Source: a virus
Lineage: Duplodnaviria; Caudoviricetes
DNA length: 58,231 bases
Reading direction: 5' to 3' (one strand)
Virus record (IMG/VR): IMGVR_UViG_3300025759_000107
Span: 1 to 58,231 of that record
Shown here: piece by piece, positions 9,534 through 52,829 of the stretch
Layout of the letters: every line of letters begins with the position of its first letter
Position numbering within the stretch: the stretch's first letter is position 1
Notes under the pieces: generated by a model
What the model was told of the DNA's origin: nothing
The model's database searches: none
The model's input: only the letters and a program-made list of their open reading frames with translations
Position numbers and translations under genes: made by a program

Positions 9534-12500
9534 ATGGCTTATTCCCCAGTCGATATGAGACCGCCAGTTGGTGCAGAACCGGGCTTACCGTTGACATCTA
9601 TTGTTGATGCAACAGGTACATTTCGAAACACATTCTCTCCTTCACAACCACCTACAACAAACGACTTACTGCTAAACATTTCTCCCCCATCTTTGAACAG
9701 TGAAATGGGTTGGTTGGAGATGTCTCAAATAGAAGGTGTAACAGTAACAGGTTCTCATCATGATGCCTCAGCAACAAGTGTTTCAGTTTCGGGAACAGTC
9801 ATGACTTTCACCGAAGCAGGTAGGTTCGGGGCGCACAGTAGAAGAACTGAAACAGGTAATCAACCTGCTAACCATACTTTTTCTATCAAGAGAGATACAA
9901 CTTCAATCCCTGCCACAGATAATCAGTTGACTCTGGGTAGAACTACAACTAACGGTGCTCCTTTGAATATCGCTCATTACGCAGCAACAGTTGTTCCATC
10001 GAACGGACTTGGGATTTCATTCGGCTCGTTTCACAACACTGCGTATTCAGTCATTGGTTTCGTAGCAGACCGCTCAGATAAATCGGTAAGTGATATGGCT
10101 ATGTTTGATAGAGCCGAAGAGAGTGGACCAACTTCTTCATACTGGGGGATTAACTTGGGTGCAAGACAAACCGTATTGGCTAGTGGTACATCGTTAACAT
10201 CCCCAACAAGCACTGAATCTGCTACTGAAACTTCTAACATTCTGACTAACTATTCGACTATTCAAGTACCGAGAGTTATTGAAGACAGTGATGCTTTACC
10301 ATATTCTATTGGTGCAGTTGAAAGAGGCAATCATGTTGTCGTCGATTCATGCGGTCTTGTTGGCTACGAAGGTGCGTTAGTTGTTACTGCGTTTCATAGT
10401 GTGCCAGAGGATGAAAACGATGAAACATATTCTGGGTTGAATGTTCAAGTTCATTCGGGTCAAACTCTACTAAGAAATGGTAAGTGGTATAACGATTCTA
10501 CCTTAGCCACTGGTTCACGATATAACTACACAGACGGTACGCCTATATTTCCACTACAAGAAGCACTAGGAACTGCTGCTAGACGCTCTGGGAAGTCTGG
10601 AGATACCAATGACAATCAAACTACATTTATGACAGGAAGAAACATTAGAACCGCTCCTAGTACGGCTTTTGGAACTCAAACAATCAGCAGTCGAACATCT
10701 GTTCAATCTAAGGCTAGTGGTAGAATATATGGAGACATAACAGGAACAGGTGCTTGGTCTAAGACAACTGCAATTTCCTCAACCTTCCTTGCTGATAAAG
10801 TTCCGACCCGTGTTAAAGTTGTTCCTTCGATTCTTCGTTATGAAGATGTAACAATCGAGGGGGTTGCATTTCGAAAACCAATTGTTGACTATCATATTCT
10901 AGTATCAGTTGTCAATACCCCGAAAACGGTTAGAGCAAGTGGGACAGTTGACTATACAAGAGGCGCACCAACATTAGCCCAGTCTCACATTCCAGCAAAC
11001 TATTCTGAAGATAGTGTAACAATATATCATGCTATATTCAGACTCGACCCAACACTTACAGGCGTTAAATTAGGAACTACGGCCCAATCAAAACAAGTAA
11101 CACAATCTGCATGGGGGTTACATCAGATGACACCATTCAGACCCTTAGCAAATCCATCATGGGCGAGAATACCAAAGTTATGTGGAACAATAGAGCCGGG
11201 TGGATTCTATCAACAAGGTGGCATTTCACATCTATGGGACGCAGATGCTTACGGTGGAGAGTTGCTTGTAGGGGCAGATGCTATCGACGCATCGGACTTC
11301 AACTCGGCAGTTTGGGGTAACGGCCAAGTATGGGCTGACGGGGGCAGTGGAGCAGCAGGTAATCCTAGAGGCAGCGAACTACTACTATTCAAGTGGACAG
11401 CCAACAATGACGCTCTATACACCGAAGATGCTACCACAGCAACAGACAATCCATTGTATAATCTATTAGTGGGTAAGTCTGAATCTCTCGATGCTAGAAC
11501 TGGCATTTCTATCTCTGAATATATGTATCAATGGACTATCCATGATTGGGTGTTTCCTCAAGTCGAACTAATGAGATACTTAGGTCAAGAGAGAAAAGAC
11601 CGGGCCAAACACCCGGACCACACATCCTACGCAGAATCGTTGCTTCATCCGACAATACATTGTTCGTCATTGCGAATCATGGAAGATGGAAAGATGATGA
11701 TGGCTGCGATTCACCGAGATATGATAAGTAATACTGGGGAATATCCGAGTCCCGACATTAACCCTTGGCCTTGGAATCCCGATGGTTTTTCCAATCCATG
11801 CCCGCCGGGTTTCTATTACGATGATGCTGCTAAAACATGCAACCCGATACAAGATGAACAGAGCGACCCACTTAGCGGCACTGGTGATGCTGTTTTACAG
11901 CATCCAGAGCCAGTGTTGAACTTCGGCAGTACGAACAACTACACTGGAACAAACTTCGGTGCTGTTCCACCTTGGGGGCAGATGGTTGCTAACTCAAGTG
12001 CAAGAAGTCTGATTCTATTATGGTCGGACACCCCTGCAAAGAATGGCAGGGTGCGTGAAGGTAAGGCAATGTTCGACATCAAATATTCAACAGTTGACGG
12101 GGCTAGTAAAGGAACACAAAACTGGATAGAAGATGATACGTGGTGGAGTGGTTCTCGAATTGCTTATTGGTTTCCCGAATCAGCACAAAGGGCGATACCG
12201 ATTACTTACGGCTCATATCCAGAAGGACGTTGTTCTCATGCGGTCTTACCTAAGTGTCTCCCTCACATACTAAGTGATGGTTCTATTTTACATGGTTATC
12301 CTTACAGACAAATGACTGACCGTGTTTCTTATCTTGGGTATGACGACATAACCACAGAGAAAAGTGGAATAGATGCTTGGGCTGTTGATAGATACCAACA
12401 TTTGAGAAAGACTAGGTTCATTCCTACAACCATTGGTTTTGCTGATTTCGGCTCATCTGCGAGTCCATTCTGCGAGTTTGGGTTCAATGGGTGGGCTTTC

Positions 12501-14975
12501 CCTGCGGCTCTGTATAACACACGTTCCTATGACACTACGTCGTATTCAGAGGGCGACACTGACGCACCATTCTCAGACTTACTATCAACAAATGCTGCTA
12601 GAAAATTAGTCGGCCCTCTCGGTGGGTTCTCACATTTCGGCCCTCTTCATTACGGTCTTTCATCTAAAGCACACCCGTACAGAACTGATAGAACTTGGAA
12701 ACAGGTTCACGCTGGTCTAGGCTACGACATTCCTTTACATCTACTTGCACCCGGTCAAGTTCACGTCCGGGCTAGAGCAGGTGGAAAAGGAACTCTTGAT
12801 TTAGAACTTGAAACTCCATTCTCAAGAACGGACACCCTTCACTTAGAAGGTGCGGCAGGTTTGTTATCTGGTTTTGATGCAGCAGGTGATGGTGGGACTA
12901 TCGGTCAATCTTACTTACGCACTAATCTATGGGCTGATACAGCAAGGAGAACAACTAACAGTGGTAATGTTCTTTACAATGATATTCTATTACCAAATGA
13001 GTTAATGGGTGGCCCATTCGTAAGTGGTAATTCTTTATCTGCATTCTGGCTTAATCACCCAACAGACCACTTCCACGCAGGGGCTATCCCTGTTATGACA
13101 GGCAGTGATTACGACTGGGATAAAGTCTACACTGCCGGTTATCCACATGTAACATTGGCTAGAGCACAGGAACTTAGTAAGAAGGACTGGGTTGCTGTAT
13201 CTGAACAATTGAAATCATCAGTCGAGGTACACGTATCTAATCACGTAAGACCATATTGGGATAGTGGTAGTATAGTCAATGCAACAGGAATAATATCCTC
13301 ACAGGGTAATGTTACTGCGAATAGAAAAGAAATGAATGACAGTGCGAGTGCTACCGGAGCAACTGACGGCTATCTTGGCAAGGGTCAAAGAATATTGAGA
13401 ACACCCGATGGGACATTGCATCAATTTACAATTGCTCCATCGACTAAGGCAAGCCGAGGGAATCAACCTACGTACGTACATTACACCAAACCACCGGGTT
13501 CAGATTTATTCTGGAATCGACACGCCGAACAACTTGGTGCAACAACAACTGGTCTTGATGAAGTCCTACTTATTTCAGAGATAGGTAGTTCTGCGCTTGA
13601 CACTAATGATAAGATATACGGAGCAGCATTCGCCTCAGACAGTCTAGGAACAATACACGCTGTTATCGAAGTAGCAAGGGATGATTCTGCTAGTATAACA
13701 GGCGCACCGATACGCAGACTCTTCTATACATATGCAACTAGAAACATAGTCGCATCTTCACCGGACCACGTGTATAAGTGGGACTGGACGACTGTTACAC
13801 CAATCAACATCTCAGCAACTAACAATCCATACACCACTGGAGATAACATGATGCAACCGACTTTAGTATGCGACTCTAAGGACAGGCTTCACTTGTCTGC
13901 GGTTCATTACCGGGAGAGTGCCTCAGAATATTCAGTCGTCTATTCAATCAAAGAACCGAATGCAAGTTGGGTTGCACTTCCGAGCGGTAGTCCAACAACT
14001 TGGGATGATGGAAGATGGGTTTCAGTTGACAACACGACATCAGGTAGAATAGACTCACCTAAGTTGGCTCTTAGGGGCGACGACATTCCTTTCATCTTCT
14101 TTAGAAAAGATAACAACACTGCGAATGCTAAAGTGTATGCTTGTCAAGGCGACTTAGGCTCTGGCACAGTGCATACTTTCGGAAGTCCACTTTACTTACA
14201 TGAAAATGATGCTGATGTATGCGACTGGTATGATGCAATCATAAACGAAGAAGATAGGATATATGTAGTCTGTAGGTTAAGTAAAGTCGATGACATTGCT
14301 GCTAACGATGTAATGATAACTGCCATGAATGCTAGAGACGTATTGTCATCAACAACAAAGACTGTAAAACATATTTTTCATCCAATCTCCGGCGACCCAT
14401 TCGATATATCCGACATGACAATGACAACTAATGGAAATGGGAATATTCACATCGTCGTTAGATGGCGTAGTAACCTACAATATACAACAGTGCCTACTCC
14501 AGAAGTTGACGGTGCTGCACCGCTTAGTTGGCCCGCAGTAGTTGACTCATCACCTATGACTATTGCAGGTACATCCGGTGTATGGACACAACGCTCACAC
14601 TTCATGGAGATATGGCTTCCTTCTTTCGAGTTTGATGCTGCTACTGCTGATGAGAATGTTATCCGTTCTATGAATGTTCGTTGGCTATCTGTTCCATCAG
14701 TAAAGACTGACGGGACTGAATGGACTATACTAGGTGCGGCTGAAACTCTTGCAGGTAGTGAGGATTTCACTCACGATGCACCACAGTTACGTTACCAAAG
14801 ATTCTGGGGACATAATGCGGCAGACCTAGACTTGGCTTGGACGACTAACCCATTGGCTTGGTACAGAACTCCACATGCAGGGTCGTCTTTGTACTGGCCT
14901 TGGAGTGGGGCTTTGATAACCCGCATAGGCGACCAAGATGCTGTGAGTGGTACTACTAACCGTCATGGGTTTTAG
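9534..14975 (+). CDS. Giant tail/adhesin-like structural protein
   Basis: 1813 aa in the tail operon; C-terminal part has beta-propeller-like blades (DGTLHQF, DSLGTIHAV, DSKDRLHL, NGNGNIHIV). Confidence 0.6.
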   Translation: MAYSPVDMRPPVGAEPGLPLTSIVDATGTFRNTFSPSQPPTTNDLLLNISPPSLNSEMGWLEMSQIEGVTVTGSHHDASATSVSVSGTVMTFTEAGRFGAHSRRTETGNQPANHTFSIKRDTTSIPATDNQLTLGRTTTNGAPLNIAHYAATVVPSNGLGISFGSFHNTAYSVIGFVADRSDKSVSDMAMFDRAEESGPTSSYWGINLGARQTVLASGTSLTSPTSTESATETSNILTNYSTIQVPRVIEDSDALPYSIGAVERGNHVVVDSCGLVGYEGALVVTAFHSVPEDENDETYSGLNVQVHSGQTLLRNGKWYNDSTLATGSRYNYTDGTPIFPLQEALGTAARRSGKSGDTNDNQTTFMTGRNIRTAPSTAFGTQTISSRTSVQSKASGRIYGDITGTGAWSKTTAISSTFLADKVPTRVKVVPSILRYEDVTIEGVAFRKPIVDYHILVSVVNTPKTVRASGTVDYTRGAPTLAQSHIPANYSEDSVTIYHAIFRLDPTLTGVKLGTTAQSKQVTQSAWGLHQMTPFRPLANPSWARIPKLCGTIEPGGFYQQGGISHLWDADAYGGELLVGADAIDASDFNSAVWGNGQVWADGGSGAAGNPRGSELLLFKWTANNDALYTEDATTATDNPLYNLLVGKSESLDARTGISISEYMYQWTIHDWVFPQVELMRYLGQERKDRAKHPDHTSYAESLLHPTIHCSSLRIMEDGKMMMAAIHRDMISNTGEYPSPDINPWPWNPDGFSNPCPPGFYYDDAAKTCNPIQDEQSDPLSGTGDAVLQHPEPVLNFGSTNNYTGTNFGAVPPWGQMVANSSARSLILLWSDTPAKNGRVREGKAMFDIKYSTVDGASKGTQNWIEDDTWWSGSRIAYWFPESAQRAIPITYGSYPEGRCSHAVLPKCLPHILSDGSILHGYPYRQMTDRVSYLGYDDITTEKSGIDAWAVDRYQHLRKTRFIPTTIGFADFGSSASPFCEFGFNGWAFPAALYNTRSYDTTSYSEGDTDAPFSDLLSTNAARKLVGPLGGFSHFGPLHYGLSSKAHPYRTDRTWKQVHAGLGYDIPLHLLAPGQVHVRARAGGKGTLDLELETPFSRTDTLHLEGAAGLLSGFDAAGDGGTIGQSYLRTNLWADTARRTTNSGNVLYNDILLPNELMGGPFVSGNSLSAFWLNHPTDHFHAGAIPVMTGSDYDWDKVYTAGYPHVTLARAQELSKKDWVAVSEQLKSSVEVHVSNHVRPYWDSGSIVNATGIISSQGNVTANRKEMNDSASATGATDGYLGKGQRILRTPDGTLHQFTIAPSTKASRGNQPTYVHYTKPPGSDLFWNRHAEQLGATTTGLDEVLLISEIGSSALDTNDKIYGAAFASDSLGTIHAVIEVARDDSASITGAPIRRLFYTYATRNIVASSPDHVYKWDWTTVTPINISATNNPYTTGDNMMQPTLVCDSKDRLHLSAVHYRESASEYSVVYSIKEPNASWVALPSGSPTTWDDGRWVSVDNTTSGRIDSPKLALRGDDIPFIFFRKDNNTANAKVYACQGDLGSGTVHTFGSPLYLHENDADVCDWYDAIINEEDRIYVVCRLSKVDDIAANDVMITAMNARDVLSSTTKTVKHIFHPISGDPFDISDMTMTTNGNGNIHIVVRWRSNLQYTTVPTPEVDGAAPLSWPAVVDSSPMTIAGTSGVWTQRSHFMEIWLPSFEFDAATADENVIRSMNVRWLSVPSVKTDGTEWTILGAAETLAGSEDFTHDAPQLRYQRFWGHNAADLDLAWTTNPLAWYRTPHAGSSLYWPWSGALITRIGDQDAVSGTTNRHGF

Positions 14976-17394: not shown

Positions 17395-19206
17395 ATGGAT
17401 GATGAGGCCGAGCGGTATGTTCGCATCGTTAGAGACCCTATTGACGATGAGTTTGTCATTACTCCGCCGGATAATCTCAAAGATTTCGTTGAGGAATTAG
17501 GGCAAGACCCACGAAGACCGAGGACGGCGATTGCTCGATTCGTTTCTCGAACATGGGCTGAAGTTCAGTGGTTGAATTACAGAGCAAGAGATACGGTAGC
17601 GGAACACGCTATGACCGTCAATGATAAAGAAGATATTAACAGACCCGCTCATTATCCAGCAGACTTCGGTCTCGGTTTAATCCCACATCCAAATACGATG
17701 ACTGCTCTTTCAAATCAATGGACGACGGGTGGACCAACAACTTACTGTTATACTAATCTTGCATCACCAAAACCATTCGACCCTCATCTTCACAACGGCT
17801 ACACCGGGGCAACTGACGGCTTCGGTTATCTCTACGCATCTGCGTCGTTATTCCCAGACCAATACGATTTGACAAGCAGACGTGGCGGTGGACCACGTGG
17901 CGGTTTTGCATTTACAACAGGACCGACCGAAGGCAACTATCCAACATCAGTTTTACCAAACCCAACATTCAATCTAGGAAAATTGGGTTACAGTAACGGC
18001 GGTTGGAATCCAGAAGGTCTACAATGGATGAATAGACCGAGACAATTTCAATTAGGTAATCTAAGAAACAACTGGCCTCACAAGGTTTACTTCGTTAGGT
18101 CAAGGCAAGTTTTGGGACGAACAATATACGGGCAGATAGCAGAAGATGAGGCAACGCCAAAGACACCTGTTGTATTAGTTAATGGAATTAGACCCTTACA
18201 TGGTGTCAAGTCAATTTCTTCAAAAGATGACTTGAACACACCACGACAAATTACAATCAACATATCATCCGTTGCGGGTCGAAGGAGCGGCATAGCAGAA
18301 GTTGGAGAAACGATTCAAGTTTACTTAGCACCACGAATGTGGTCTAATCCACCATTGATATTCACAGGCTATGTAGCAGGGATTGAAGAAACATCTGATA
18401 GTATTCGATTGACTTGTCTTGATGCACTGGGTTTCTTGACGAATGAATATATCACCGAACAACCTGCACATGCAAATGGAAACATTGCTACTATAATTAA
18501 AAGTATAATCGCCAATTCCAGTTACAACCCACCTATCGCCCGCATCATCTCTGACTTTCAATTTACTTTACCAACTGGTTTGAAGTTCAAGGGTAAGACG
18601 AGATTAGCAGCGATTCAAACTCTGCTGAGTTTTGTGAACTCTGGACCGATACAATATCAAATCTACGCAGACGCTTATGGTTACATTCACGTCGCCCAGA
18701 AAAAAGAACTTCACGATTCTAACTTCACCCCTTACACAGCGGGTCGTGTTCCAAAGACTACTGTTCCTCTCGACTTTTATCCAACTATGATTGAGAGAGT
18801 TACAAACGATGATGACTTCTTCAACAAAGTTACTGTTGAAAATGAAGAATTAGACATTAGTGCGACTGTCTCATTGACAAGTGAAAGACCTGTTCATCGG
18901 TACATCAAAGATACTAGCGTTACCACAGTTGCACACGCTGAAACTCTTGGTAGGCAAATACTGATGAGACAAGGAATTGCGTACAGTCAATGGATAGTAG
19001 AAGGTCTTCCAGAACGATTTGATTTGAGAGCGGGAGATATAATGGACTTCGCATCAATTGACGGTAGTCTAGCGGGTAGACAAGAATTATTTTCAATCGC
19101 TTGGGAGTTTTCAACTGACGACTCTAGTATGACATTAACAGTCGGAAAACAACCATCAGACATAGCGGCAACCATGAGGATGGCCGCCGGATTAAGTGTT
19201 CAGTAG
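17395..19206 (+). CDS. Tail hub/baseplate protein (late control D/Tal-like)
   Basis: Likely start MDDEAERY at 17395; C-terminal half has IFTGYVAGIEE...LTCLDALGFL, IYADAYG, NKVTV, LRAGD, typical of hub proteins. Confidence 0.7.
   Translation: MDDEAERYVRIVRDPIDDEFVITPPDNLKDFVEELGQDPRRPRTAIARFVSRTWAEVQWLNYRARDTVAEHAMTVNDKEDINRPAHYPADFGLGLIPHPNTMTALSNQWTTGGPTTYCYTNLASPKPFDPHLHNGYTGATDGFGYLYASASLFPDQYDLTSRRGGGPRGGFAFTTGPTEGNYPTSVLPNPTFNLGKLGYSNGGWNPEGLQWMNRPRQFQLGNLRNNWPHKVYFVRSRQVLGRTIYGQIAEDEATPKTPVVLVNGIRPLHGVKSISSKDDLNTPRQITINISSVAGRRSGIAEVGETIQVYLAPRMWSNPPLIFTGYVAGIEETSDSIRLTCLDALGFLTNEYITEQPAHANGNIATIIKSIIANSSYNPPIARIISDFQFTLPTGLKFKGKTRLAAIQTLLSFVNSGPIQYQIYADAYGYIHVAQKKELHDSNFTPYTAGRVPKTTVPLDFYPTMIERVTNDDDFFNKVTVENEELDISATVSLTSERPVHRYIKDTSVTTVAHAETLGRQILMRQGIAYSQWIVEGLPERFDLRAGDIMDFASIDGSLAGRQELFSIAWEFSTDDSSMTLTVGKQPSDIAATMRMAAGLSVQ

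Positions 19207-33114: not shown

Positions 33115-33130
<16 letters not shown>
32822..33130 (+). CDS. Hypothetical protein
   Basis: 102 aa with GGAGTGA SD-like site; overlaps neighbours. Confidence 0.6.
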
Positions 33131-36531
<3,401 letters not shown>

Positions 36532-36541
36532 GGTGTGATGA

Positions 36542-39343
36542 ATGGCAGATAATTTCAAAGTTGACGGAGATATAGAAGTCGAAGATGGTATAAAGTTCGG
36601 AGATGGAACTAGACAAACAACCGCTTCTAGTGGAATAGCAGGGCCTACAGGACCGGCAGGGCCTACAGGTCCAACGGGTTCTACTGGAGCGACAGGACCG
36701 GCAGGTGCAACAGGTCCAGCAGGTTCGACAGGACCGACAGGTGCAACAGGACCGACAGGGCCGACAGGTCCTACAGGAGCAACAGGTCCTACAGGAGCAG
36801 CAGGGCCACCCGGTCCTACAGGTCCGACTGGTGGAGATGGACCAACTGGTCCAACAGGTTCTACTGGGCCTACAGGTTCTACTGGACCGACAGGAACAGC
36901 CGCAGGGTTCGGTACACCTACCGCAAGTACAGGACCAATAGGTGTAACAGCGTCCGGTCCTAACACAGCCAAAGTTTTTGCTTTTAGTATTCCTCAAGGA
37001 GACACCGGAGCGACAGGTGCAACAGGGCCACCCGGCCCAACTGGTCCGACAGGGGCTACTGGACCTACTGGAAATACAGGTCCAACTGGAAATACAGGTC
37101 CAACTGGAGCGACTGGTCCAACAGGTGCGACAGGTCCACCCGGCCCAACTGGTGCTGTTGGTCCAGCAGGTAGTGTTGGTCCAGAGGGTCTAGTTTGGAA
37201 AGGTACATGGGCTACTTCGACTGCTTATGCAGTTGACGATGCTGTTTATTATTCCGTTGAGGAATCATCTTACATTTGTATTCAAGCACATACATCGGGT
37301 GCAATAACTCCGACTAACACATCTTATTGGAGCATCTTAGCAGCACAGGGAGATACAGGTCCTACAGGTCCGACAGGGGCTACAGGTCCAGCCGGACCAC
37401 CCGGCCCTACTGGTGGCACTGGTGTAGCCGGACCACCCGGCCCAACCGGAGCGACAGGGCCTACTGGAGCAACAGGTCCGACTGGTAGCACTGGACCAAC
37501 AGGAACGGCAGCAGGGTTTGGAACACCCACAGCAAGCACTGGTCCTATTGGTGTGTCTTCAAGTGGTCCAGACACCGCTAAAGTATTCGCTTTCTCGATA
37601 CCCGCAGGGGATGTAGGCCCAACAGGTGCAGCAGGTCCACCCGGTTCTACTGGTCCTACTGGCCCTGCTGGTGCGGCAGCAGGTTTCGGAACTCCTACTG
37701 CTAGTACAGGTCCTATTGGTGTTACAGCAAGCGGTCCTAATACCGCTAAAGTATTCGCATTTTCTATACCACAGGGAGCAACTGGCGCAACAGGGCCTAC
37801 TGGGGCTACTGGTCCACCCGGTCCTACCGGACCTACTGGTGCTACAGGACCTACTGGTCCTACAGGACCTACTGGTCCTACAGGTGCTACCGGACCTACT
37901 GGTGCTGTTGGTCCTACTGGAGCGACTGGTCCGGCTGCCGGATTTGGAACACCCACAGCCTCTACCGGACCTATCGGAGTAACCGCTAGTGGACCGGACA
38001 CGGCTAAAGTATTTGCATTCAGCATACCTGCGGGTGCTACTGGGCCAACAGGTGCTACTGGAACAGCAGCAGGTTTTGGAACTCCAACCGCTTCTACTGG
38101 CCCTATTGGAGTAACGGCTAGTGGACCGGACACAGCGAAAGTCTTTGCCTTTTCAATACCTCAAGGTGCGGCAGGTCCTACAGGACCAACAGGGCCTACT
38201 GGTCCTATTGGACCAACCGGACCTGCGGGGGCTACAGGACCTACTGGTGCTGCGGCTGGCTTCGGCACTCCGACAGCCTCAACTGGTCCTGTTGGAGTAA
38301 CGGCTAGTGGTCCTGACACAGCCAAAGTATTTGCTTTCTCTATACCTAGTGGTGCAACAGGTCCAATAGGGCCAACAGGTGCTACTGGTCCTACAGGTCC
38401 GGCTGGTCCTACAGGTCCGGCAGGGCCTACTGGACCTACAGGTGCTACTGGGCCAACCGGCCCTGCCGCCGGATTTGGAACACCTACCGCAAGCACAGGT
38501 CCAATAGGCGTAACTGCCTCTGGACCAAATACTGCTAAGGTGTTTGCATTCTCGATACCGGCGGGTGCTACTGGACCTACTGGTCCACCCGGTGCAACAG
38601 GACCTACTGGACCTGCCGGACCTACTGGGCCACCCGGTGGAACAGGGCCAACAGGACCTACCGGACCAACTGGTTCTACAGGTGCTACTGGACCTACCGG
38701 ACCAACTGGACCTGCCGGAGCGACTGGACCTACCGGACCTACCGGACCAACTGGTGCAATTTCATGGGAAAATGTTTGGGCTGATGGTAATTACTCCATA
38801 GGTGATGTTGTTACTCACGAAGGCGGTACTTACATTGCGGTGGCTGGTGTAACTTTTGGCGAAAATCCACCCAATGATTCGAGTAGATGGCAAACATTAG
38901 CAACACCCGCTAAGTTTTTCATTACAGCAGAATGGAATGACCAATATTATTCATCAAGTCTTAGAAACGGTTGGAGATTTTCTTTTGGTAGTGGTATCAA
39001 TAACGTAAACAACACTGATGGTTCAACAAATCCAATGGGTGCAGTAATACCGTTTGATTGCGAACTTAAGGAAATACGTTGGTTCGTAGGTAATGTCGGT
39101 GCGGAAACCGGGTCTACTTCTTTCATTCACAAGATTACAAAGAACGGTTCGGATTTAGCAACAACATATTCTTGGGCTTCAACCGGAAGCGGTGGTACTT
39201 CCTATACAAGAACCGCATCACCGAATCTTGGCTTTGTTGCAGGTGATACATTCAATCTACGATTAACTAGCCCGTCATCATATGTAAGTACAAATCAAGT
39301 GGGAAGAGTAAGAGTAGTGTTTTATTTTGAAATGAAGGAGTGA
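36542..39343 (+). CDS. Collagen-like fibre protein 2
   Basis: GXY repeats broken by seven [29 protein letters not shown] modules, two carbohydrate-binding-like modules, globular C-terminal domain. Confidence 0.85.
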
Positions 39344-45435: not shown

Positions 45436-46017
45436 ATGTCAGAAGACAATTTTGATGAAGATGAGTGGGATGGAGAAACACTACCTGCTGATACTAGGGA
45501 GAACGAACATGACCCCCTAGTAAGGTGGACAGCACAATTACTGGTCCGAGGAATGAAGCCAAGTCAGATACGAAGAAAAGTGGCAGATGCCAGTTTGGAG
45601 AGGCGACTCGACCCCGATGAATGGAATCGCCTTATGTCCGATGCCGGAAAATTAGCGGAAAATATGCGAGAGATGGTTGTAATGAAAGCAGAGTTGGATG
45701 ATACGGACTGGCTTAGGTTGGATTCGTACGCAAGAAGAAGACGTTCTATGGAAAGAATGGAACGTCTAATCATCAAAGCAGAAGAACAAGCAGACACAGT
45801 TTCGAAGTTGGGGCAAGTGTCTTTCATGGTAGGTGGTCTAATCAAACAACAAGACGGACTAGACAAAATGTCTGGTGCTCAAGACGCAAAGCCGCAAGTC
45901 ATAGTTAACATTGGCTACGACCCATTGGAGCAGATGCGTGAGGTTCTACAAAAAGAGATTATTGACATAGAAAACAAAGCCGAAGACGATGACGATTTAG
46001 TCGATACTTCCGATTAA
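45436..46017 (+). CDS. Putative terminase small subunit
   Basis: 193 aa; HTH-like N-terminus (LLVRGMKPSQIRR), long helices, QVIVNI strand, acidic ends; last gene before phased repeats and the early region. Confidence 0.45.
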   Translation: MSEDNFDEDEWDGETLPADTRENEHDPLVRWTAQLLVRGMKPSQIRRKVADASLERRLDPDEWNRLMSDAGKLAENMREMVVMKAELDDTDWLRLDSYARRRRSMERMERLIIKAEEQADTVSKLGQVSFMVGGLIKQQDGLDKMSGAQDAKPQVIVNIGYDPLEQMREVLQKEIIDIENKAEDDDDLVDTSD

Positions 46018-46093
46018 AACTGCTCATTTACTCGATACTTAGCCGATACTTCTTACATTTGATGCACGTTTAGCCGATACTTAGTCGATACTT
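45997..46093. repeat. Five 11-bp repeats TTA(G/C)(T/C)CGATAC
   Basis: Copies at 45997, 46028, 46039, 46070, 46081 (spacings 31, 11, 31, 11). Confidence 0.85.
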
Positions 46094-46221
46094 TGCACAA
46101 TTTTTCCACATTTTCAATAAAGCATACGCTCCGCACTTTCGGCCATGTTGATGGGACGACGTTCTAGTATATGAATGTTTGCCTGTAGCATTCTCACTTT
46201 TTAGGCTCGCATTGTATAGAC

Positions 46222-46241
46222 GGGGTTAGTGATATGGGTTA
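46222..46241. repeat. 20-bp repeat GGGGTTAGTGATATGGGTTA, copy 1 (promoter cassette)
   Basis: Identical at 48172-48191 and 48953-48972, each followed by TTATAGTCTTTC. Confidence 0.9.
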
Positions 46242-46330
46242 ATTGCTTATAGTCTTTCGCCTATATACTTCTGACTTATATGATAATCAAACTATAGAAA
46301 ACTTTAATACCTAAGCCTTACCTCGTAGGG

Positions 46331-46414
46331 GGTGGGCGGGCGGCTTCAAGGGCCGCAACCGAACCCACGCGGGCGGTTCTCGCATCCAGCCCCGTTAACG
46401 AGATGAGATGCGGG
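46331..46414 (+). ncRNA. Candidate small GC-rich structured RNA
   Basis: TTTAATA at 46303 with no ORF downstream; nested stems GTGGG/CCCAC, CGG/CCG, GCGGC/GCCGC and CTCGCATC/GATGCGGG. Confidence 0.45.
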
Positions 46415-46492
46415 TTTATAATCTTTCGCTTATATCCTTTCAAGATATATACTACAAAACCTTTATATCAAAATCATTGGCTCAGATAAAAT

Positions 46493-46955: not shown

Positions 46956-47951
46956 ATGAGCCGAACACGAAAGCCAAAGACGACGACACAAGAACGAATG
47001 AATGAAATTGCTGACCAAGTAATTCAGACCATCAGCGAGGGTAATCTCCCTCAGTGGTCTAAGCCTTGGAACGGGCTTTTCAGTCCAACAAATGGACACA
47101 CTGGGAAAGGTTTCACCGGCCTCAATGTTTGGGCTTCAATTATCGCAATGAGCCGAAACAATTACTCAAGCCCTCTATTCGTAGCAGCAGGTCAAGCAAA
47201 GAAATTAATCGAAGAATACAACAAAGAAAACGGTACGGAATTAGTCGCATTTGTAAAAGGTGGAAAGGCGGACACATACCACTTTAGACCTATTCAATAC
47301 AAAGTAAAATCAAAAGACGAAGAAGAAGAATCAAGCCGCTTCTTAACTGGTTTCACTGGTTATGCTGTTTGGAATATCGAGAATACAAACATTCCGTCCG
47401 AGTGGGCTTTCAAAAGGCTCAACGTAGAAATCAACGACCCTGTAGAAGTTAGCGACCTAATATCTACCGTAGAATCAAACTTGAAGGGAGTTTCTTTCGC
47501 CACTGGCGGAGCAGCATATTATACACCTAGAACTGACGTAATCACTATGCCACCATTGACCGCATGGGAATCAGAGAATGACTACGCGGCTGTTTTACTT
47601 CACGAAGCAGCACACGCAACCGGCCACCCTCACAGACTAGCACGACCGCTTGAAGGAATTACCGCAAGAGGCTCAGACTATGCGACCGAGGAACTAATAG
47701 CGGAACTGGCTTCAATTGCTGCTTGTGGTGCTTTAGGCTATGAGGCTGACCTAACCCGTTCAAGTGCATACCTTAGCGGTTGGGCATCTCGTACACCACA
47801 AAAAGAAGCAAGGGCAGCAATCTTGAAAGCCCTTTCAAGGTCAATGGCGGCGGCTGAATGGGTCATCACTGGAGCACCCGACCGCCATGAAGGACCAACT
47901 TCTTCAAGCGAGTTGGCCGAGGGTGTACTTGACGGAATCACAACCGAATAA
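46956..47951 (+). CDS. ardC: ArdC-like antirestriction/ssDNA-binding protein with zincin domain
   Basis: PQWSKPW, PTN..TGK.FTGLN, VWNIE, AYYTP..D.I.MP, LLHEAAHATG, YATEELIAE, AYLSGW. Confidence 0.9.
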   Translation: MSRTRKPKTTTQERMNEIADQVIQTISEGNLPQWSKPWNGLFSPTNGHTGKGFTGLNVWASIIAMSRNNYSSPLFVAAGQAKKLIEEYNKENGTELVAFVKGGKADTYHFRPIQYKVKSKDEEEESSRFLTGFTGYAVWNIENTNIPSEWAFKRLNVEINDPVEVSDLISTVESNLKGVSFATGGAAYYTPRTDVITMPPLTAWESENDYAAVLLHEAAHATGHPHRLARPLEGITARGSDYATEELIAELASIAACGALGYEADLTRSSAYLSGWASRTPQKEARAAILKALSRSMAAAEWVITGAPDRHEGPTSSSELAEGVLDGITTE

Positions 47952-48295: not shown

Positions 48296-48838
48296 ATGGA
48301 AACTGAAAATATCCGAAATGAAAGCACAAGAACGAACGAATTGGTCATAGACCGAGAGAGTGGCTCTGTAACCACATTAGGAGCATTTGCAGGGCTTGAA
48401 ACAGTCCTTCGTGCTTCAAGAGGGGTTCTCGGTGGAGACACCACAGTATCAGCCCGTGAAAATCTGGGTCAAGACTCTGTAACTGACGTTAGTTTTACAA
48501 TAACTGACAACCGAACCGGCGACACAAGAACCATTGAAGGTGACTTAATCGTAGGCTCTGACTACATCAGAAGCCAAACTATGGCGTTTCCGACATCGGT
48601 GGCTATGCTGCTTAGCGCGTCCCTTCTAGGTATGTTCAGAGGGACAGTACGAACCGCTGTATTAGACGCTATTCAGAGCGGCGTTGAAGGTGCATCTACT
48701 GAAGAAGTAGGCAACGCAATTATGAACGCAATAAACTTGAGTCCCGAAGCATTAGCAAACGGTCAAGAGGTACTTGCTGAAATGCGTCGCGTATCGGCTC
48801 GCACCGTAGCCGCTCCGGTTCGCTTCGACGAGAATTGA
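48296..48838 (+). CDS. Early hypothetical protein
   Basis: 180 aa; CCTTTAATA promoter and GAGGT SD. Confidence 0.75.
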   Translation: METENIRNESTRTNELVIDRESGSVTTLGAFAGLETVLRASRGVLGGDTTVSARENLGQDSVTDVSFTITDNRTGDTRTIEGDLIVGSDYIRSQTMAFPTSVAMLLSASLLGMFRGTVRTAVLDAIQSGVEGASTEEVGNAIMNAINLSPEALANGQEVLAEMRRVSARTVAAPVRFDEN

Positions 48839-48884
48839 ATTGAGTAGGCTTCGGCCTCTCTTTTCTTTTCTCTGAACGTCGTAA

Positions 48885-48923
48885 GGTCGCTGAGGGCTTA
48901 GGCTCTCAGTGGCCGCTTTTTTT
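48885..48923 (+). terminator. Hairpin + T-tract terminator
   Basis: GGTCGCTGAGGGC-TTAG-GCTCTCAGTGGCC-GC-T7. Confidence 0.75.
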
Positions 48924-48952
48924 ACTCAATGCCCCGGTCGGGTGGTCCACAT

Positions 48953-48972
48953 GGGGTTAGTGATATGGGTTA
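48953..48972. repeat. 20-bp promoter-cassette repeat, copy 3
   Basis: Exact match to 46222-46241. Confidence 0.9.
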
Positions 48973-49125
48973 GAGGTTTATAGTCTTTCGCTTTTATCAT
49001 ATTGAGACTATATGACCAATACCTTTATCAAAAAAATATGGTTTGATAAGGACACCCATCTCAATAAGTAAGAGAGTAAGTGGGACGGAAACGCCAAAGC
49101 GATAAACAAACAGGAGAGAGAAAAA

Positions 49126-49254
49126 ATGCAGAAATTGATTGAAAGCCTAAAAATAGAAATTGAACAGAGAACGCCACAAATAGTTGTATTAAGTTGTGAC
49201 TGCTTAGACGGTCAACATGACGGCTGTATAACGGTCATAGACGGAAACTATTGA
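49126..49254 (+). CDS. 42-aa microprotein
   Basis: MQKLIESLK...CDC...HDGC...; AGGAG upstream; hairpin downstream. Confidence 0.5.
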   Translation: MQKLIESLKIEIEQRTPQIVVLSCDCLDGQHDGCITVIDGNY

Positions 49255-49373
49255 GAAGGTTGGGGGATTTTCCCCCTTCCATCTCAACTGTATAATTTAC
49301 TCATTATAGAGAGTTTGAAGTATAGAACTATTGATATACTAATGCATGCTCCGGTAGACTGGAGATAACCGAA

Positions 49374-49478
49374 ATGAGCCTAATGAGATTAATTATGAGA
49401 AGCCGAGAATATTCCTGTTTTTGCTGTAATAGCAAGCATGAAACAAAGACCGAACTAATAGAACACATATGCAATTAA
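49374..49478 (+). CDS. 34-aa zinc-finger-like microprotein
   Basis: CFCC...LIEHIC; promoter TTGATATA...CTCCGGTAGA and GGAG upstream. Confidence 0.5.
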   Translation: MSLMRLIMRSREYSCFCCNSKHETKTELIEHICN

Positions 49479-49490
49479 GGAAGTGAAAAA

Positions 49491-49805
49491 ATGACATACA
49501 TTGAAGAAGAAATAAAAACAAAATACGAAGCCCGCAAGAATGAAACCGTACTCAAAGGAGAATTAGACTTTAACGTCAAAATCAAGTTAGACTTTCCAAC
49601 TCATGAGAAGTTAAAATATAGTAGTGACATCGAAGACCTAGCCGAACAATTTACCGACGCTATACAATCCGCTATTCAAAAAGAAGCCTTCTCGTTTCTT
49701 GACAGTTATGCTGTTGACGAATACGTATCACTATCAGACTTCAAACTTGAAGAAAGTTTCACGGACGCATTGAATGAAGCATTAAAGGGGGGTAGTGAAG
49801 AATGA
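49491..49805 (+). CDS. Acidic hypothetical protein
   Basis: 104 aa with SD-like AAGGAAGTG. Confidence 0.7.
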   Translation: MTYIEEEIKTKYEARKNETVLKGELDFNVKIKLDFPTHEKLKYSSDIEDLAEQFTDAIQSAIQKEAFSFLDSYAVDEYVSLSDFKLEESFTDALNEALKGGSEE

Positions 49806-49939
49806 AGCAATTCACATGTTCAATATGTGAGCATTCATTCTTTGCTTACCCGAATAACGCTCAACCTTTGAATGAAGGTGAATGTTGTGACTCATGTAAT
49901 ATTCAAGTCATCATGGCACGTCTTAACGGTGGTGCTTAG
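49802..49939 (+). CDS. 45-aa Cys-rich microprotein
   Basis: CSIC...NNAQP...CCDSCN..V..AR; ATGA-coupled. Confidence 0.6.
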   Translation: MKQFTCSICEHSFFAYPNNAQPLNEGECCDSCNIQVIMARLNGGA

Positions 49940-49940
49940 A

Positions 49941-50042
49941 ATGAAGGTTCAAGTTTTAATCATGTCCGAAGAGTTTGAATTGCTCAAGGAATGCGACTTG
50001 AATGAAGGCTTTCCGTCATGGTGGAAAGAAGGTCTCTGTTGA
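49941..50042 (+). CDS. 33-aa microprotein
   Basis: MKVQVLIMSEEF...WWKEGLC*, GGTGGTG upstream. Confidence 0.4.
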   Translation: MKVQVLIMSEEFELLKECDLNEGFPSWWKEGLC

Positions 50043-50113
50043 GAATTATACAACATATAGTTGTGATTAATATTACCTAGTTGTTATATAGGGGTATCTT
50101 CTCCGCTAGACTG

Positions 50114-50524
50114 ATGACAACCCAAGCACCAACCCTAACCGGAACAAAGCACGCACTAGATAGAGCCTCAATCAGACTGGTTGAAGGCGAGTTAAAACAG
50201 GCTATTGCAGTTAGCCAACGCGAATGGAATAACGCATATAACGCCGGTCATAGAGCCGTTGCTGTCGTAGCACTAGACCTAAGCCAACGCCGAATGACTG
50301 ACAACACTGGTTATGAATCGAATGGAGACATGGTAGTTTTAATCATAGTTCAAGGTCAAGTCAAGACCGCATACTTGAGAAGGTCAACCCAACCAATGAA
50401 TAAAGCATGGGTTCAAAGAATCGGTGCATCTCATCAAGGCGGACTTTCAAAAGTAAAATGGGCGCGAGGAACTGAGGCAGCCAAAGCAAGAAATACAAGA
50501 GCATACAAAAAAGGGAGAAGGTGA
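50114..50524 (+). CDS. Hypothetical protein, possible RelE/DUF4258-like fold
   Basis: TKHALDR...VVLII...VKTAY pattern; TTATATA...CTCCGCTAGA promoter sets the start at 50114. Confidence 0.6.
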   Translation: MTTQAPTLTGTKHALDRASIRLVEGELKQAIAVSQREWNNAYNAGHRAVAVVALDLSQRRMTDNTGYESNGDMVVLIIVQGQVKTAYLRRSTQPMNKAWVQRIGASHQGGLSKVKWARGTEAAKARNTRAYKKGRR

Positions 50525-50841
50525 AAACCTTCTTCCGATTCTTGTATGAATAGAGCCAATCTGAGAGGCTCTTTTCTTTAGCCAATGGTTCGGAGTCTAG
50601 TTATAGAAACAACGGCCTGTATGAGCCTCTAAATATAGAAATATAGGCAACTACTCCCTCTACTACTCCCCCTATACCCTACCCCTATAATTGATGACAG
50701 CCATTTTCAATTCTGAAATGCACCGCATACTGGTTTCGCTCGCTATGAGTCAATTTTTCTTATGAGCACTATATACTTCTTTTCTTACAAGAAAAGTCAA
50801 CTATAGAAACATTGATAAGGGGACACCCTGTCCCATCAAAC

Positions 50842-51291
50842 AGCCGAGTCGGACTCGGTGGCTAGAACATGGTAATACATGTGGACTAGCGGGAATGAAT
50901 GTGGAGAACCACGAATGCGTCAGTGTATTGCGGTAGTCGTGCGTCTCAACAGGGTCTTGGCAAGAACAGTCATGTAAAGCCCGCGAATGTTGAGGGAGAG
51001 TTCTATGGTTGAGGGAGAAATCCCCCTAAGACGCTCATCACATCTCTGAGGCCGAGTATAAGGTAAGGGGGTGTGTTATGAGAGACTGGTCCAGAAGCGT
51101 GAGAGAATGTAGGCATACATTAGGCTCATGTCGCAACCCACATTCACCCCACTAAATCGTGGGGGGTGTTCACTAGAGCGTAGGTAGTTCCATCTTTGAT
51201 AGTCGACTAGAACGACTTAGATAGGAGTCGTAAGAACCTCGCCGCCCATCTAGTAAATGTGAAGTAAGGAAGGTGCGATTGGCAGCGTACC
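50842..51291 (+). ncRNA. Candidate large (~450 nt) multi-stem non-coding RNA
   Basis: No ORF of 60 aa or more in 50586-51643; upstream CTATAGAAACATTGATAAGG promoter; at least 10 stems including long-range 50896-904/51138-46, with G-U pairs favouring the + strand. Confidence 0.7.
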
Positions 51292-51312
51292 CATGCCCCC
51301 CACCCCTACCCT

Positions 51313-51548
51313 ATTTTCTATACTATATACTATTATAATTAATTAAAATTAAAATTAATTAAATTAATTTGAAAGGTTATGGGGGGACACACACACAACA
51401 GGGGTAAGGTGTGTGTGTGCTCAAGGGGGTCTCTCTCCAGTCGAATTAATTTATTTTTTATCTAAGTAGGCTCGTAGTGTATCGTTTTTCCCCTAAATTA
51501 ATTCAAATTAATTCGAGGGGCTTTTTCGCCACATAGGATGATAACACT
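51313..51548. other. Origin-like region: AT-only tract plus palindromic element B
   Basis: About 58 bp of almost pure A/T (51313-51370); CACACACAC...GTGTGTGTG inverted repeat; AATTAATT repeats; inverted homolog of element A. Confidence 0.5.
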
Positions 51549-51692
51549 TTAGGTTTTAGAATACTATATATCAGAGTTATAGGCTTTAATCAAAAAATCA
51601 GTACCAGAATTACTAAATATACCATCGGAATTAATTTTGCCAGTTATAGGCATGAAAAGATATATATTCGATGCCTTCCTCGGAGAAGTCGC

Positions 51693-52622
51693 ATGAACAT
51701 ATTTGTCCTAGACACAGACCACAAGAAGAACGCCAAATACCACGCCAATGTCCACGTAAGTAAAATGACATTGGAGACCGCCCAAATGCTATGCACAGCA
51801 GTGCGAGTATGTATGGAAGACTCTGGCTTCCACACGCACTTCATTGAGAAGACTCTGCCTAAAGCAAAGTCCGGCAAAGCATACCGACGCTCACATCCGA
51901 ACCATCCCTGTACTATATGGGCGAGAGAGAATCGAGCAAACTATCTCTGGCTATGTAGTCTAGGCTATGAGTTATCTAAAGAGTTTACACGCAGGTATGG
52001 TAAAGTACATGCATGTCATACAGTAATAGAACAATGTGCTGCATTATCTCATTACATTCCACAAGACTTAGACAACCCAAGACAAATTACACCATTCGCT
52101 CAAGCAATGCCGGACGAATACAAGGACGAAGACGCAGTAGTAGCATACCGCCGTTATTACAAATCTAAGTTTGACGCTGGAATGAAAATGGAATACCCAG
52201 ACAATAAGACACCATATTGGTTGCATATAGACGAAGTGAAATCTGAATACAGTTTTTCGGAACGTGCTAGTGGTAAATCAAAAGAAGCATGGGCGAGAGC
52301 AAGACAAATACAATTAGAATACTGGTTAGAATGGGCGTGGGAGAATCTTCATCATTATCAAATCAAACACGCTTACCATCGTAGTAATGTTCCAATGTTT
52401 GACATGGGTATGGCTTTCGACGAATGGAAAAAGGTTCGAGGTGAATCTCCGACCAACGAACCTTGGTCGCCATCGAAGACAGAAGCGAAGCACGAACTTA
52501 GAGTCATGCTAGACTACATGAGGGTGAACCACATGAAACATCCAAAAAACATAAAGAAAAACTTGACAAATGTCAAGACTGAACGTAGGGCGGGTAGACG
52601 TTATCCATTCGTTGTGAAATAA
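51693..52622 (+). CDS. Pyrimidine-dimer DNA glycosylase (T4 endonuclease V family) with C-terminal extension
   Basis: MNIFVLD, HVSKM.LETAQML, HPNHPCTIW, NYLWL, EFTRRYGKVH, FAQAMPDEYK, AYRRYY. Confidence 0.85.
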   Translation: MNIFVLDTDHKKNAKYHANVHVSKMTLETAQMLCTAVRVCMEDSGFHTHFIEKTLPKAKSGKAYRRSHPNHPCTIWARENRANYLWLCSLGYELSKEFTRRYGKVHACHTVIEQCAALSHYIPQDLDNPRQITPFAQAMPDEYKDEDAVVAYRRYYKSKFDAGMKMEYPDNKTPYWLHIDEVKSEYSFSERASGKSKEAWARARQIQLEYWLEWAWENLHHYQIKHAYHRSNVPMFDMGMAFDEWKKVRGESPTNEPWSPSKTEAKHELRVMLDYMRVNHMKHPKNIKKNLTNVKTERRAGRRYPFVVK

Positions 52623-52682
52623 TATCATTTACAGCACTCTAAATAGGTGCGGTCAAAAACCCTATCTTGTCTGACATAGGAC

Positions 52683-52829
52683 ATGGACGGAGATAAGATA
52701 TGGGAGATGGACGTAACGGGAAGCCCGAAGGAAGTAGGGATGTTGATTCAATCTCTGATTATAATGAACCCGAATCTTGCGTTCAAGGTTTTCAGAAGGA
52801 AAGACAAAATATGTATCACGGCAGATTAA
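52683..52829 (+). CDS. 48-aa hypothetical protein
   Basis: MDGDKIWEMDV...CITAD*; downstream of TAAATA-GGTGCGG; makes the 52700 start of the next ORF unlikely. Confidence 0.45.
   Translation: MDGDKIWEMDVTGSPKEVGMLIQSLIIMNPNLAFKVFRRKDKICITAD

Follow-up and report, generated by a model that had tools for sequence, protein, structure and literature searches.

The stretch analysed here, referred to as the window, is the whole of IMG/VR record IMGVR_UViG_3300025759_000107, a viral sequence of 58,231 bases with an estimated completeness of 72%. Its largest ORF-poor block, in which no open reading frame (ORF) exceeds 37 aa in a list of ORFs of at least 30 aa, spans 50525–51692 and lies between an ORF of 136 or 147 aa (50081/50114–50524) and a 309-aa ORF (51693–52622) of the PHROG 624 'DNA binding protein' family. 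Comparative sequence evidence identifies 50832–51312 (+ strand) within this block as the gene for a structured non-coding RNA of ~480 nt and not a chance fold. A first-pass annotation had proposed a large ornate non-coding RNA at 50801–51291. The proposal was borne out by covariation, by recovery from RNA libraries and by the lack of a conserved ORF, and an RNA does lie at those positions, but it begins only at ~50832, after a putative promoter and a variable leader (50801–50831), and extends to ~51312, leaving the end first given ~12–20 nt short. Both ends were placed by conservation.

A search with the downstream protein gave 66 loci, and exact-motif scans of viral and metagenome collections were run for further variants. 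The whole intergenic region was kept at two of the 66 loci (L002 and L003; 78–82% identity) and the motif scans gave L072, L074 and duplicates (three further variants by our tally), resulting in five distinct variants with pairwise identities of 77.7–95.1%. RNAalifold predicted 130 pairs on the five-variant alignment, and 97.4% of the 644 cells were paired, compared to 35.3–45.7% in six controls with partners slid by 1–3 columns. Double (compensatory) changes were present at 13 pairs (24 cells), in 8 of the 20 helices, compared to 0–2 in the slid controls. For four of five measures none of 500 shuffles reached the observed value; for the fifth, 'further pair types', 121 of 500 did. Two of the scanned loci, L072 and L073, are the two ends of one 84,586-base metagenome contig; both carry the RNA region, at only 82% identity, and the neighbouring 6.4 kb is 96.5% identical to the relative G036. 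The contig resembles an assembly with terminal redundancy that joins two strains, the RNA/early-gene region being a divergence hot spot.

The predicted structure falls into three domains. The 5' domain (50831–50894, helices 1–4) consists of a closing helix TCCC/GGGA, a hairpin GCCGAGT/ACTCGGT and a two-part hairpin GCTAG-ACATG/CATGT-CTAGC. The two stems first proposed here, CCGAGT/ACTCGG (50843–59) and GCTAG/CTAGC with ACATG/CATGT (50861–90), are both in the consensus, and the three compensatory pairs of the domain fall in helices 3 and 4, with ACATG/CATGT appearing as ACTTG/CAAGT, ACTCG/CGAGT and ACACG/CGTGT among the variants. Two internal repeats were also seen, a 20-mer at 70% identity (50871–50890 and 50891–50910) and an exact 11-mer GTTGAGGGAGA occurring twice (50989–50999 and 51008–51018), a hint that the RNA grew by local duplication.

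The central domain (50898–51144, helices 5–16) is a multi-helix junction closed over a long range by AATGTGG/CCACATT (50898–904 with 51138–44), the form in which the predicted long-range stem entered the consensus, and this helix encloses four stems. Also retained from the early prediction were CTCAACA/TGTTGAG, the GGGA-GAAA-TCCC hairpin, the CTCAT..ATGAG stem (as CTCATCACATCTCT/AGGGGGTGTG..ATGAG) and GCGTGAG/CTCATGT with AATGTA/TACATT, which together hold two compensatory pairs, AATGTA/TACATT becoming AATTAA/TTAATT among the variants. The proposed GCGTCT/AGACGC stem fell outside the consensus; its bases pair elsewhere and never vary. The junction strands AGAACC, GAGAGTTCTATGGTTGAGG and TGTCGCAACC are near-invariant, and the hairpin at 51094–51134 combines a GGCA loop with a 2x3 internal loop. 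A kink-turn reading of CGTAAGAACC was dropped, as by eye the opposite strand offers one unpaired base where two are needed.

The 3' domain (51159–51303, helices 17–20) has six pairs with double changes and is closed by a long-range helix between a G-tract and a C-tract, GTGGGGGGYGT/AYRCCCCCCAC (51159–69 with 51293–303), which shows one covarying pair (C-G twice, U-A twice, U.G once). It contains ACTAGA/TCTAGT, GCGTAGGT/ACCTCGC, which was found in four different compensated states and encloses a hairpin of variable length, and GGTGCG/CGTACC, which becomes GACGT/GCGTC among the variants and has two compensatory pairs. ACTAGA/TCTAGT and GGTGCG/CGTACC had both been predicted. Two other early stems are ambiguous, CCCCAC/GTGGGG competing with the long-range closing helix and AGTCG/CGACT being part of a hairpin that has another length and sequence in each variant. 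A C-rich motif, CCCC(C)TA(T)ACCCTA, flanks the RNA gene at 50668–50681 and 51300–51313, the downstream copy being within the proposed closing helix.

Hairpin tips carried insertions of 53 nt (L002, L074) and 20 nt (L072), neither a multiple of three, and one hairpin ranged from ~14 to ~60 nt across the variants. Variation of this sort is common in peripheral elements of RNAs and could not be accommodated by a reading frame. The open frames in the five variants reach at most 84 codons and are conserved in neither frame nor strand; no conserved small ORF was found among the five, and a coding reading was rejected. The pairs also indicated the strand, with 54 G.U cells and pairing in 97.4% of cells on the + strand against 90.1% when read on the − strand.

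Folded as a single sequence, the + strand gave −159.9 kcal/mol (z −2.43, 0 of 100 shuffles as good) and the − strand a z-score of −2.22 (2 of 100). The expectation that the region folds better than shuffled sequence was met in direction and only modestly in size, and the structure is considered more than chance because of the comparative evidence, not single-sequence folding. The modest z-scores on both strands would fit a stretch that is not a functional RNA at all, being a DNA-level element (part of an origin) or a spacer with a chance fold, and so would the conservation among close relatives of the whole intergenic region beyond the RNA. Against this stand the compensatory changes, many of them G.U-compatible and fitting only the + strand, the recovery of exactly this stretch from RNA libraries, and junction motifs that are invariant across lineages with family B DNA polymerases (PolB) only 53% identical, all of which make such an element or spacer extremely unlikely.

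A promoter-like element of TATA type, CAACTATAGAAACATTGATAAGG, is predicted at 50798–50821 (+) and is kept in L003 and L002. Similar boxes occur upstream of + strand ORFs at 46293 and 48244, the L002 version being closer still to the 48244 copy, and the second half of the box, TTGATAAGG..ACACCC, recurs at 49043. Conservation of the RNA starts at ~50832, 25–30 nt past the box, and a spacing of ~25–30 nt between box and start is expected for a TATA-type archaeal promoter. The early-type promoter of the first-pass annotation is supported by these boxes but not by the frequency of its core, as the 9-mer TATAGAAAC (at most one mismatch) was not enriched in the window, with 24 found compared to 17.8 expected and 8 of 100 shuffles reaching 24. 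The fuller recurring element, YTATAGAWACnTTkATA followed by TTGATAAGG..ACACCC, was seen in the small-gene region at 46293, 48244, 49043 and 50802, and pieces of 45–90 nt recur at 3–5 places in the relative G036. At the other end, the last stretch of the RNA, CCCCCCACCCCTACCCT (to 51312), is followed directly by a T-rich run, ATTTTCTAT (51313–51321, +), which may be an archaeal-type termination signal and is also pyrimidine/T-rich in L003 and L002.

Four RNA libraries held a small share (0.06–0.12) of the words of 49400–52700. Run X1 gave a complete contig of 426 nt (50850–51275) and run X2, from a separate study, a complete contig of 400 nt (50865–51264), both with 0 differences and no loose ends. 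Run X3 gave a contig over 50862–51015 whose loose end before 50862 is sequencing adapter, and X4, an oligo-dT library, covered only the flanking genes of a ~90% identical relative. X1 and X2 had no cover of 49400–50849 or 51276–52700, which fits a discrete abundant RNA, although the absence of a contig proves nothing. Depth in X3 was 116.9 for the RNA piece and 3.9 for a piece at 49796–49946, contig depths being unable to rank genes. These recoveries show that the RNA is present in RNA libraries as a stand-alone piece.

The RNA gene is missing from G001, a complete relative with a PolB 80% identical to that of the window and a homologous intergenic region. In an alignment of the window, L003, L002 and G001, both flanks of G001 align and a single gap corresponds to 50778–51331 (554 bp), comprising the promoter-like box, the RNA, the T-rich end and the right copy of a 10-bp direct repeat ACTATATACT. 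The left copy (50768–50777, +) matches the right copy (51322–51331, +) exactly at a spacing of 554, and G001 has a single copy there. G001 keeps the upstream block (CACCGCATACTG...), the AATTAATT repeats and the (CA)n/(TG)n hairpin, and its ACTATATAC is joined directly to the downstream tract. Judged from these alignments, the RNA, its promoter-like box and its T-rich end form a discrete unit that is present or absent as a whole, either inserted in the window lineage or deleted in G001 between the ACTATATACT repeats. Among seven relatives at least 90% complete, the RNA was found in G036 and G022 and was absent from G001, G015, G017, G029 and G032. No protein shared this distribution: of 367 G036 frames, none occurred in G022 while missing from each of the five RNA-less genomes. 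The protein encoded at 50114, which had been expected to co-occur with the RNA, is found in G001, G012 and G022 independently of it and lies far from it in the distant lineage described below, contrary to that expectation.

The precise presence or absence of the cassette between direct repeats, its different locus in the G022 lineage and a fold of several domains that includes a long-range helix and invariant junction strands could also be explained by a mobile RNA element, a highly divergent self-splicing intron or other ribozyme-based element whose own mobility accounts for its distribution, repeats and loci. Group I and group II introns and RNase P RNA likewise combine several domains, long-range helices and covarying stems with junction strands that do not vary; the window RNA differs from them in being intergenic, in matching no model and in lacking the boundary and core motifs that were checked. 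A group I intron interrupts a gene and ends in G, whereas the cassette is intergenic with boundaries inside ACTATATACT that offer no G; no P7-like pairing was seen by eye, and a long-range helix around four stems is unlike the P4-P6 stack. The Intron_gpI model had no match at E ≤ 10 in 50500–51700 or the homolog loci, with E taken over 4227 families so that a very weak likeness could escape. The GUGYG 5' end and the AY 3' end of group II introns were not found at the cassette or RNA boundaries, nor was their 34-nt domain 5 hairpin with its AGC triad and 2-nt bulge, the hairpin nearest to it being that at 51094–51134; again there was no Rfam match, and no small-ribozyme family matched at E ≤ 10. 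The archaeal RNase P model (RNaseP_arch, RF00373) gave no match on the record and matched 11 of 14 control genomes. The RNA has a promoter-like box of its own, the adjacent genes include no endonuclease, reverse transcriptase or transposase, and the RNA contigs show no joints, a weak point as their flanks are uncovered. Repeat-mediated deletion explains the empty site equally well because the repeat is itself TATA-like. A mobile element of this kind is accordingly considered unlikely.

The RNA ends directly before an AT-rich tract (51332–51690) with direct and inverted repeats of the AATTAATT type and a perfect (CA)5/(TG)5 hairpin (51387–51419). L002, L003 and the RNA-less G001 all keep the tract, which may be a replication origin or a regulatory region; a scan for the origin-hairpin pattern returned only three already known records.

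A covariance model (CM) of 50992–51134 (R1), an improved model (R2) and a model of the 3' domain (R3) were used to search for more distant homologs. CM R1 matched two of 24 PolB-related viral records (19.8 bits), and these two, L108 and L109 all represent one virus (99.9% identical; the G022 lineage, locus L106) with a PolB 53% identical to that of the window. L106:1416–1639 shares GAGAGTTCTATGGTTGAGG, TGTCGCAACC, AGAACC, AGACT and AAGCG with the window, including an identical 19-mer, and the central domain aligns by CM to L106:1501–1628. The long-range closing helix is GAAGCAG/CTGCTTC in L106 compared to GAATGTGG/CCACATTC in the window, a covariation read by eye, and the last hairpin is GCGCAACC/GGTTGTGT compared to GCGTGAG/CTCATGT. 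Adding L106 in a model-made alignment raised the pairs with double changes to 9 of 44 in that sub-domain. The shared core is ~224 nt long in L106 and ~247 nt in the window, and its junction strands are more conserved between the two lineages than the polymerase.

No counterpart of the 3' domain was found in L106 or L078 by CM R3 with filters off, indicating that only the central domain is common to both lineages and that the 5' and 3' domains are lineage-specific; an idea of permuted architecture was dropped on the same result. In L106, a hairpin-rich, ORF-poor stretch of ~580 nt lies 5' of the shared core (L106:836–1415; G022:70827–71406) and returned only identical copies; it may be the lineage-specific 5' part of a longer RNA of ~780 nt.

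Further copies were not found at any of 66 other downstream-gene-family loci by nhmmer, nor at any of 66 by CM R1. CM R2 gave no real match in 33 further PolB-related records (best 11.3 bits, in G001, with an alignment that is noise), and a third match of CM R1 was weak (G011, 12.8 bits, E 0.14). A two-anchor pattern found no copies of the viral core in GTDB genomes. L150, returned by a relaxed form of this pattern, was rejected as a coincidental match within the coding ORF of an AT-rich giant-virus bin, and L070, from the metagenome scan, as a chance match in a GC-rich coding region. Against deposited phage records, blastn gave one 51-nt AT-rich match for the window region and none for the L106 region.

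The genomic setting differs between the lineages. In the distant lineage a 289-aa and a 2409-aa ORF flank an ORF-poor stretch of 745 nt. The core lies at the 3' end of this stretch, 55 nt before the 2409-aa ORF and on the same strand, with no origin-like tract. The window homologs of these two ORFs lie at 18355–19197 and 9576–14930, so the core occupies a different genomic position in the two viruses. The 55-nt distance to the 2409-aa ORF would suit a long cis-acting leader (a 5' untranslated region, riboswitch-like element or attenuator) of the downstream gene. The genes downstream are however different, a phrog_624 'DNA binding protein' gene in the window and a giant structural-type ORF in the distant lineage, which argues against a leader of any particular gene. 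The RNA and the gene are separated in the window by an AT-rich tract of 380 nt that has TATA-like boxes of its own, the homologous gene of the relative functions without the RNA, and the RNA contigs all end before the gene is reached (a weak point). A leader role is very improbable.

The same comparison bears on a role at the origin, as the first-pass annotation had suggested that the RNA, being transcribed into the origin-like tract, might prime replication. Like RNA II of ColE1, the RNA is a heavily structured molecule of a few hundred nt transcribed towards an origin-like tract, and it could be a primer or R-loop RNA whose C-rich 3' end helps a hybrid at 51332–51690 to prime or activate replication. 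The coupling to an origin seen for RNA II is however missing, as the tract and hairpin exist without the RNA in G001 and the core exists without the tract in the G022 lineage, which excludes an obligate primer and runs counter to the earlier suggestion. The virus also has its own prim-pol-like gene, PolB and clamp loader, and the RNA-library contigs lie wholly upstream of the tract (weak evidence). An origin-associated primer is an improbable explanation of the RNA. The empty site in G001 and the core at another locus in the distant lineage point instead to an accessory, trans-acting RNA.

The virus itself encodes proteins with matches to a tape measure protein, helicase, exonuclease and clamp loader, together with a Cpn60/TCP-1 chaperonin, PolB, a weak prim-pol match and giant proteins with PKD and collagen repeats. 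The best full-length relatives of its PolB among deposited phage records are from haloarchaeal tailed viruses (24–26% identity). The combination of tailed-virus structural genes, an archaeal-type replication set and a chaperonin, which characterizes magroviruses in the excerpted description of Philosof et al. (2017; PMC5434244), is present in the window. The reading as an archaeal-type virus, already made from the sequence at first sight, is reasonable because of this gene set, and from gene content we regard the virus as magrovirus-like and tailed. Marine Group II archaea are the presumed hosts; a chaperonin search of genome contigs returned only a 23% match from Nanoarchaeia.

Other features of the window were seen in passing. 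Directly after the 50114 ORF lies a conserved hairpin, GAGCC..GGCTC, followed by TTTTCTTT (50545–50580), likely the transcript end of the upstream gene. Two ORF-poor stretches in the early-looking region (46015–46465 and 48836–49478) gave folding z-scores of −2.3 to −3.7 against mononucleotide shuffles, a rough test, and could hold further small RNAs or leaders. A 331-aa ORF at 46956–47951 matches the PHROG 7245 'anti-restriction protein' family (E 1e-36) and has a homolog in G001. Two large ORFs at 33115–39343 contain collagen triple-helix repeats and CBM5/12 modules at a G+C content of 0.47–0.57, compared to ~0.42 elsewhere, and are probably fibre or adhesin genes of different origin.

No known RNA family was matched. 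Rfam 15 (4227 models, including GOLLD, ROOL, OLE, HEARO, raiA, IMES-1 to -4, pRNA, 6S, SRP, tmRNA and the small ribozymes) gave 0 matches over the whole window at the gathering threshold. At E ≤ 10 there were eight sub-threshold matches to unrelated small-RNA families in 50500–51700 (best 23.2 bits compared to a cut-off of 79) and seven, likewise sub-threshold and unrelated, in the four homolog loci. This agrees with the earlier impression of a new class without the hallmarks of known families. In a full-text literature search no structured RNA was found described for magroviruses or for other archaeal viruses of this kind, and a term search of the magrovirus literature, including excerpts of Philosof et al. 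(2017), found no mention of such an RNA. The RNA belongs to a family that is absent from Rfam 15 and not yet described, Tan1 (see below) having been compared by description only.

The nearest systems in kind are ROOL and GOLLD, described in excerpts of Kretsch et al. (2025; PMC12286853) as abundant, non-essential, ornate phage RNAs that form RNA-only cages. Judged against those excerpts, the window RNA resembles them in being virus-encoded, several hundred nt long, elaborately structured with covarying helices, apparently abundant and sporadic and in having no dedicated protein partner known, and GOLLD likewise combines a conserved with a variable part. The likeness is one of kind and not of family. 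Unlike ROOL and GOLLD, the RNA comes from an archaeal-type and not a bacterial virus, matches neither covariance model and has no tRNA genes near it, ARAGORN finding no tRNA or tmRNA in the 58-kb window.

A second candidate relative is Tan1, which the excerpts of Hou et al. (2016; PMC5069720) describe as an abundant 229-nt structured non-coding RNA of Marine Group II contigs found in marine metatranscriptomes. Compared by that description only, it shares the presumed host group and is similar in length to the shared core (~224–247 nt); it is attributed to host contigs, unlike the viral RNA. Homology of the viral core to Tan1 is doubtful, with a small but real chance of being correct.

Taken together, we consider it likely that the cassette encodes a stable, independently transcribed RNA of ~480 nt from an undescribed family, forming an accessory 554-bp cassette of some magrovirus-like tailed viruses. 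An accessory RNA acting in trans is inferred from the covarying helices and invariant junctions, the promoter-like box of its own, the recovery from libraries, the sporadic cassette and the lack of a co-distributed protein. In the mechanism we propose, transcription would start ~25–30 nt past the TATA-type box at 50802 and end at the T-rich run at ~51313. The RNA folds into a 5' three-helix domain, a central multi-helix junction with long-range closure and a 3' domain. It would then act in trans as an accessory ('moron'-like) factor, neither a cis regulator nor an essential replication primer. It could serve a host factor or a core viral factor as scaffold or decoy or, on the model of ROOL and GOLLD, be a self-assembling or catalytic RNA. 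The working part may be the conserved junction core, whether as binding pocket, catalytic centre or assembly interface, with the peripheral domains as lineage-specific decoration. Our best guess, by analogy with ROOL and GOLLD, is a stable scaffold, decoy or ribozyme-like RNA. More tentatively, and as a possibility we would not favor at present, it could represent the first large 'ornate' RNA class of archaeal viruses, a mobile self-contained gene that is deployed early against a host process, maybe derived from Tan1, with a junction core that is catalytic, ligand-binding or protein-binding or serves as a building block of an RNA-only assembly.

Several points weigh against this interpretation. 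The family is small, with five close variants in two sub-clades and a single distant member. Few independent events therefore underlie the covariation counts, which were also made on the very alignment that yielded the structure. Single-sequence z-scores are modest (−2.4). The distant homolog scored only 19.8 bits (E ~0.006 per genome), and nhmmer sees only a 41-nt stretch of it. Only three similar sites point to the promoter, and no enrichment was seen for its core 9-mer. The library contigs carry no strand, true ends or expression level, and they stop 18–33 nt inside the predicted 5' end and 37–48 nt inside the predicted 3' end, so that the mature RNA may not include the G/C helix that closes the 3' domain. 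Trans action is argued from distribution and context only.

Large, highly structured non-coding RNAs are rare, and each class (the ribosome, RNase P, group I and II introns, OLE, GOLLD and ROOL) has revealed new RNA biochemistry or architecture. What is new here is a 554-bp cassette (50778–51331) between 10-bp direct repeats, empty in the closest complete relative. The archaeal group infected by magroviruses is among the most abundant in the surface ocean, and to our knowledge neither a magrovirus nor its host has been cultured. If the core were related to Tan1, the RNA would be a case of a virus capturing and elaborating a host non-coding RNA, which would still be new. The compact core (~225–250 nt), its natural length variants and a clean presence/absence polymorphism make it a practical target for work on structure, self-cleavage, assembly and comparative ecology, and a viral RNA that can be made in vitro would be one of the few directly testable handles on magrovirus infection.

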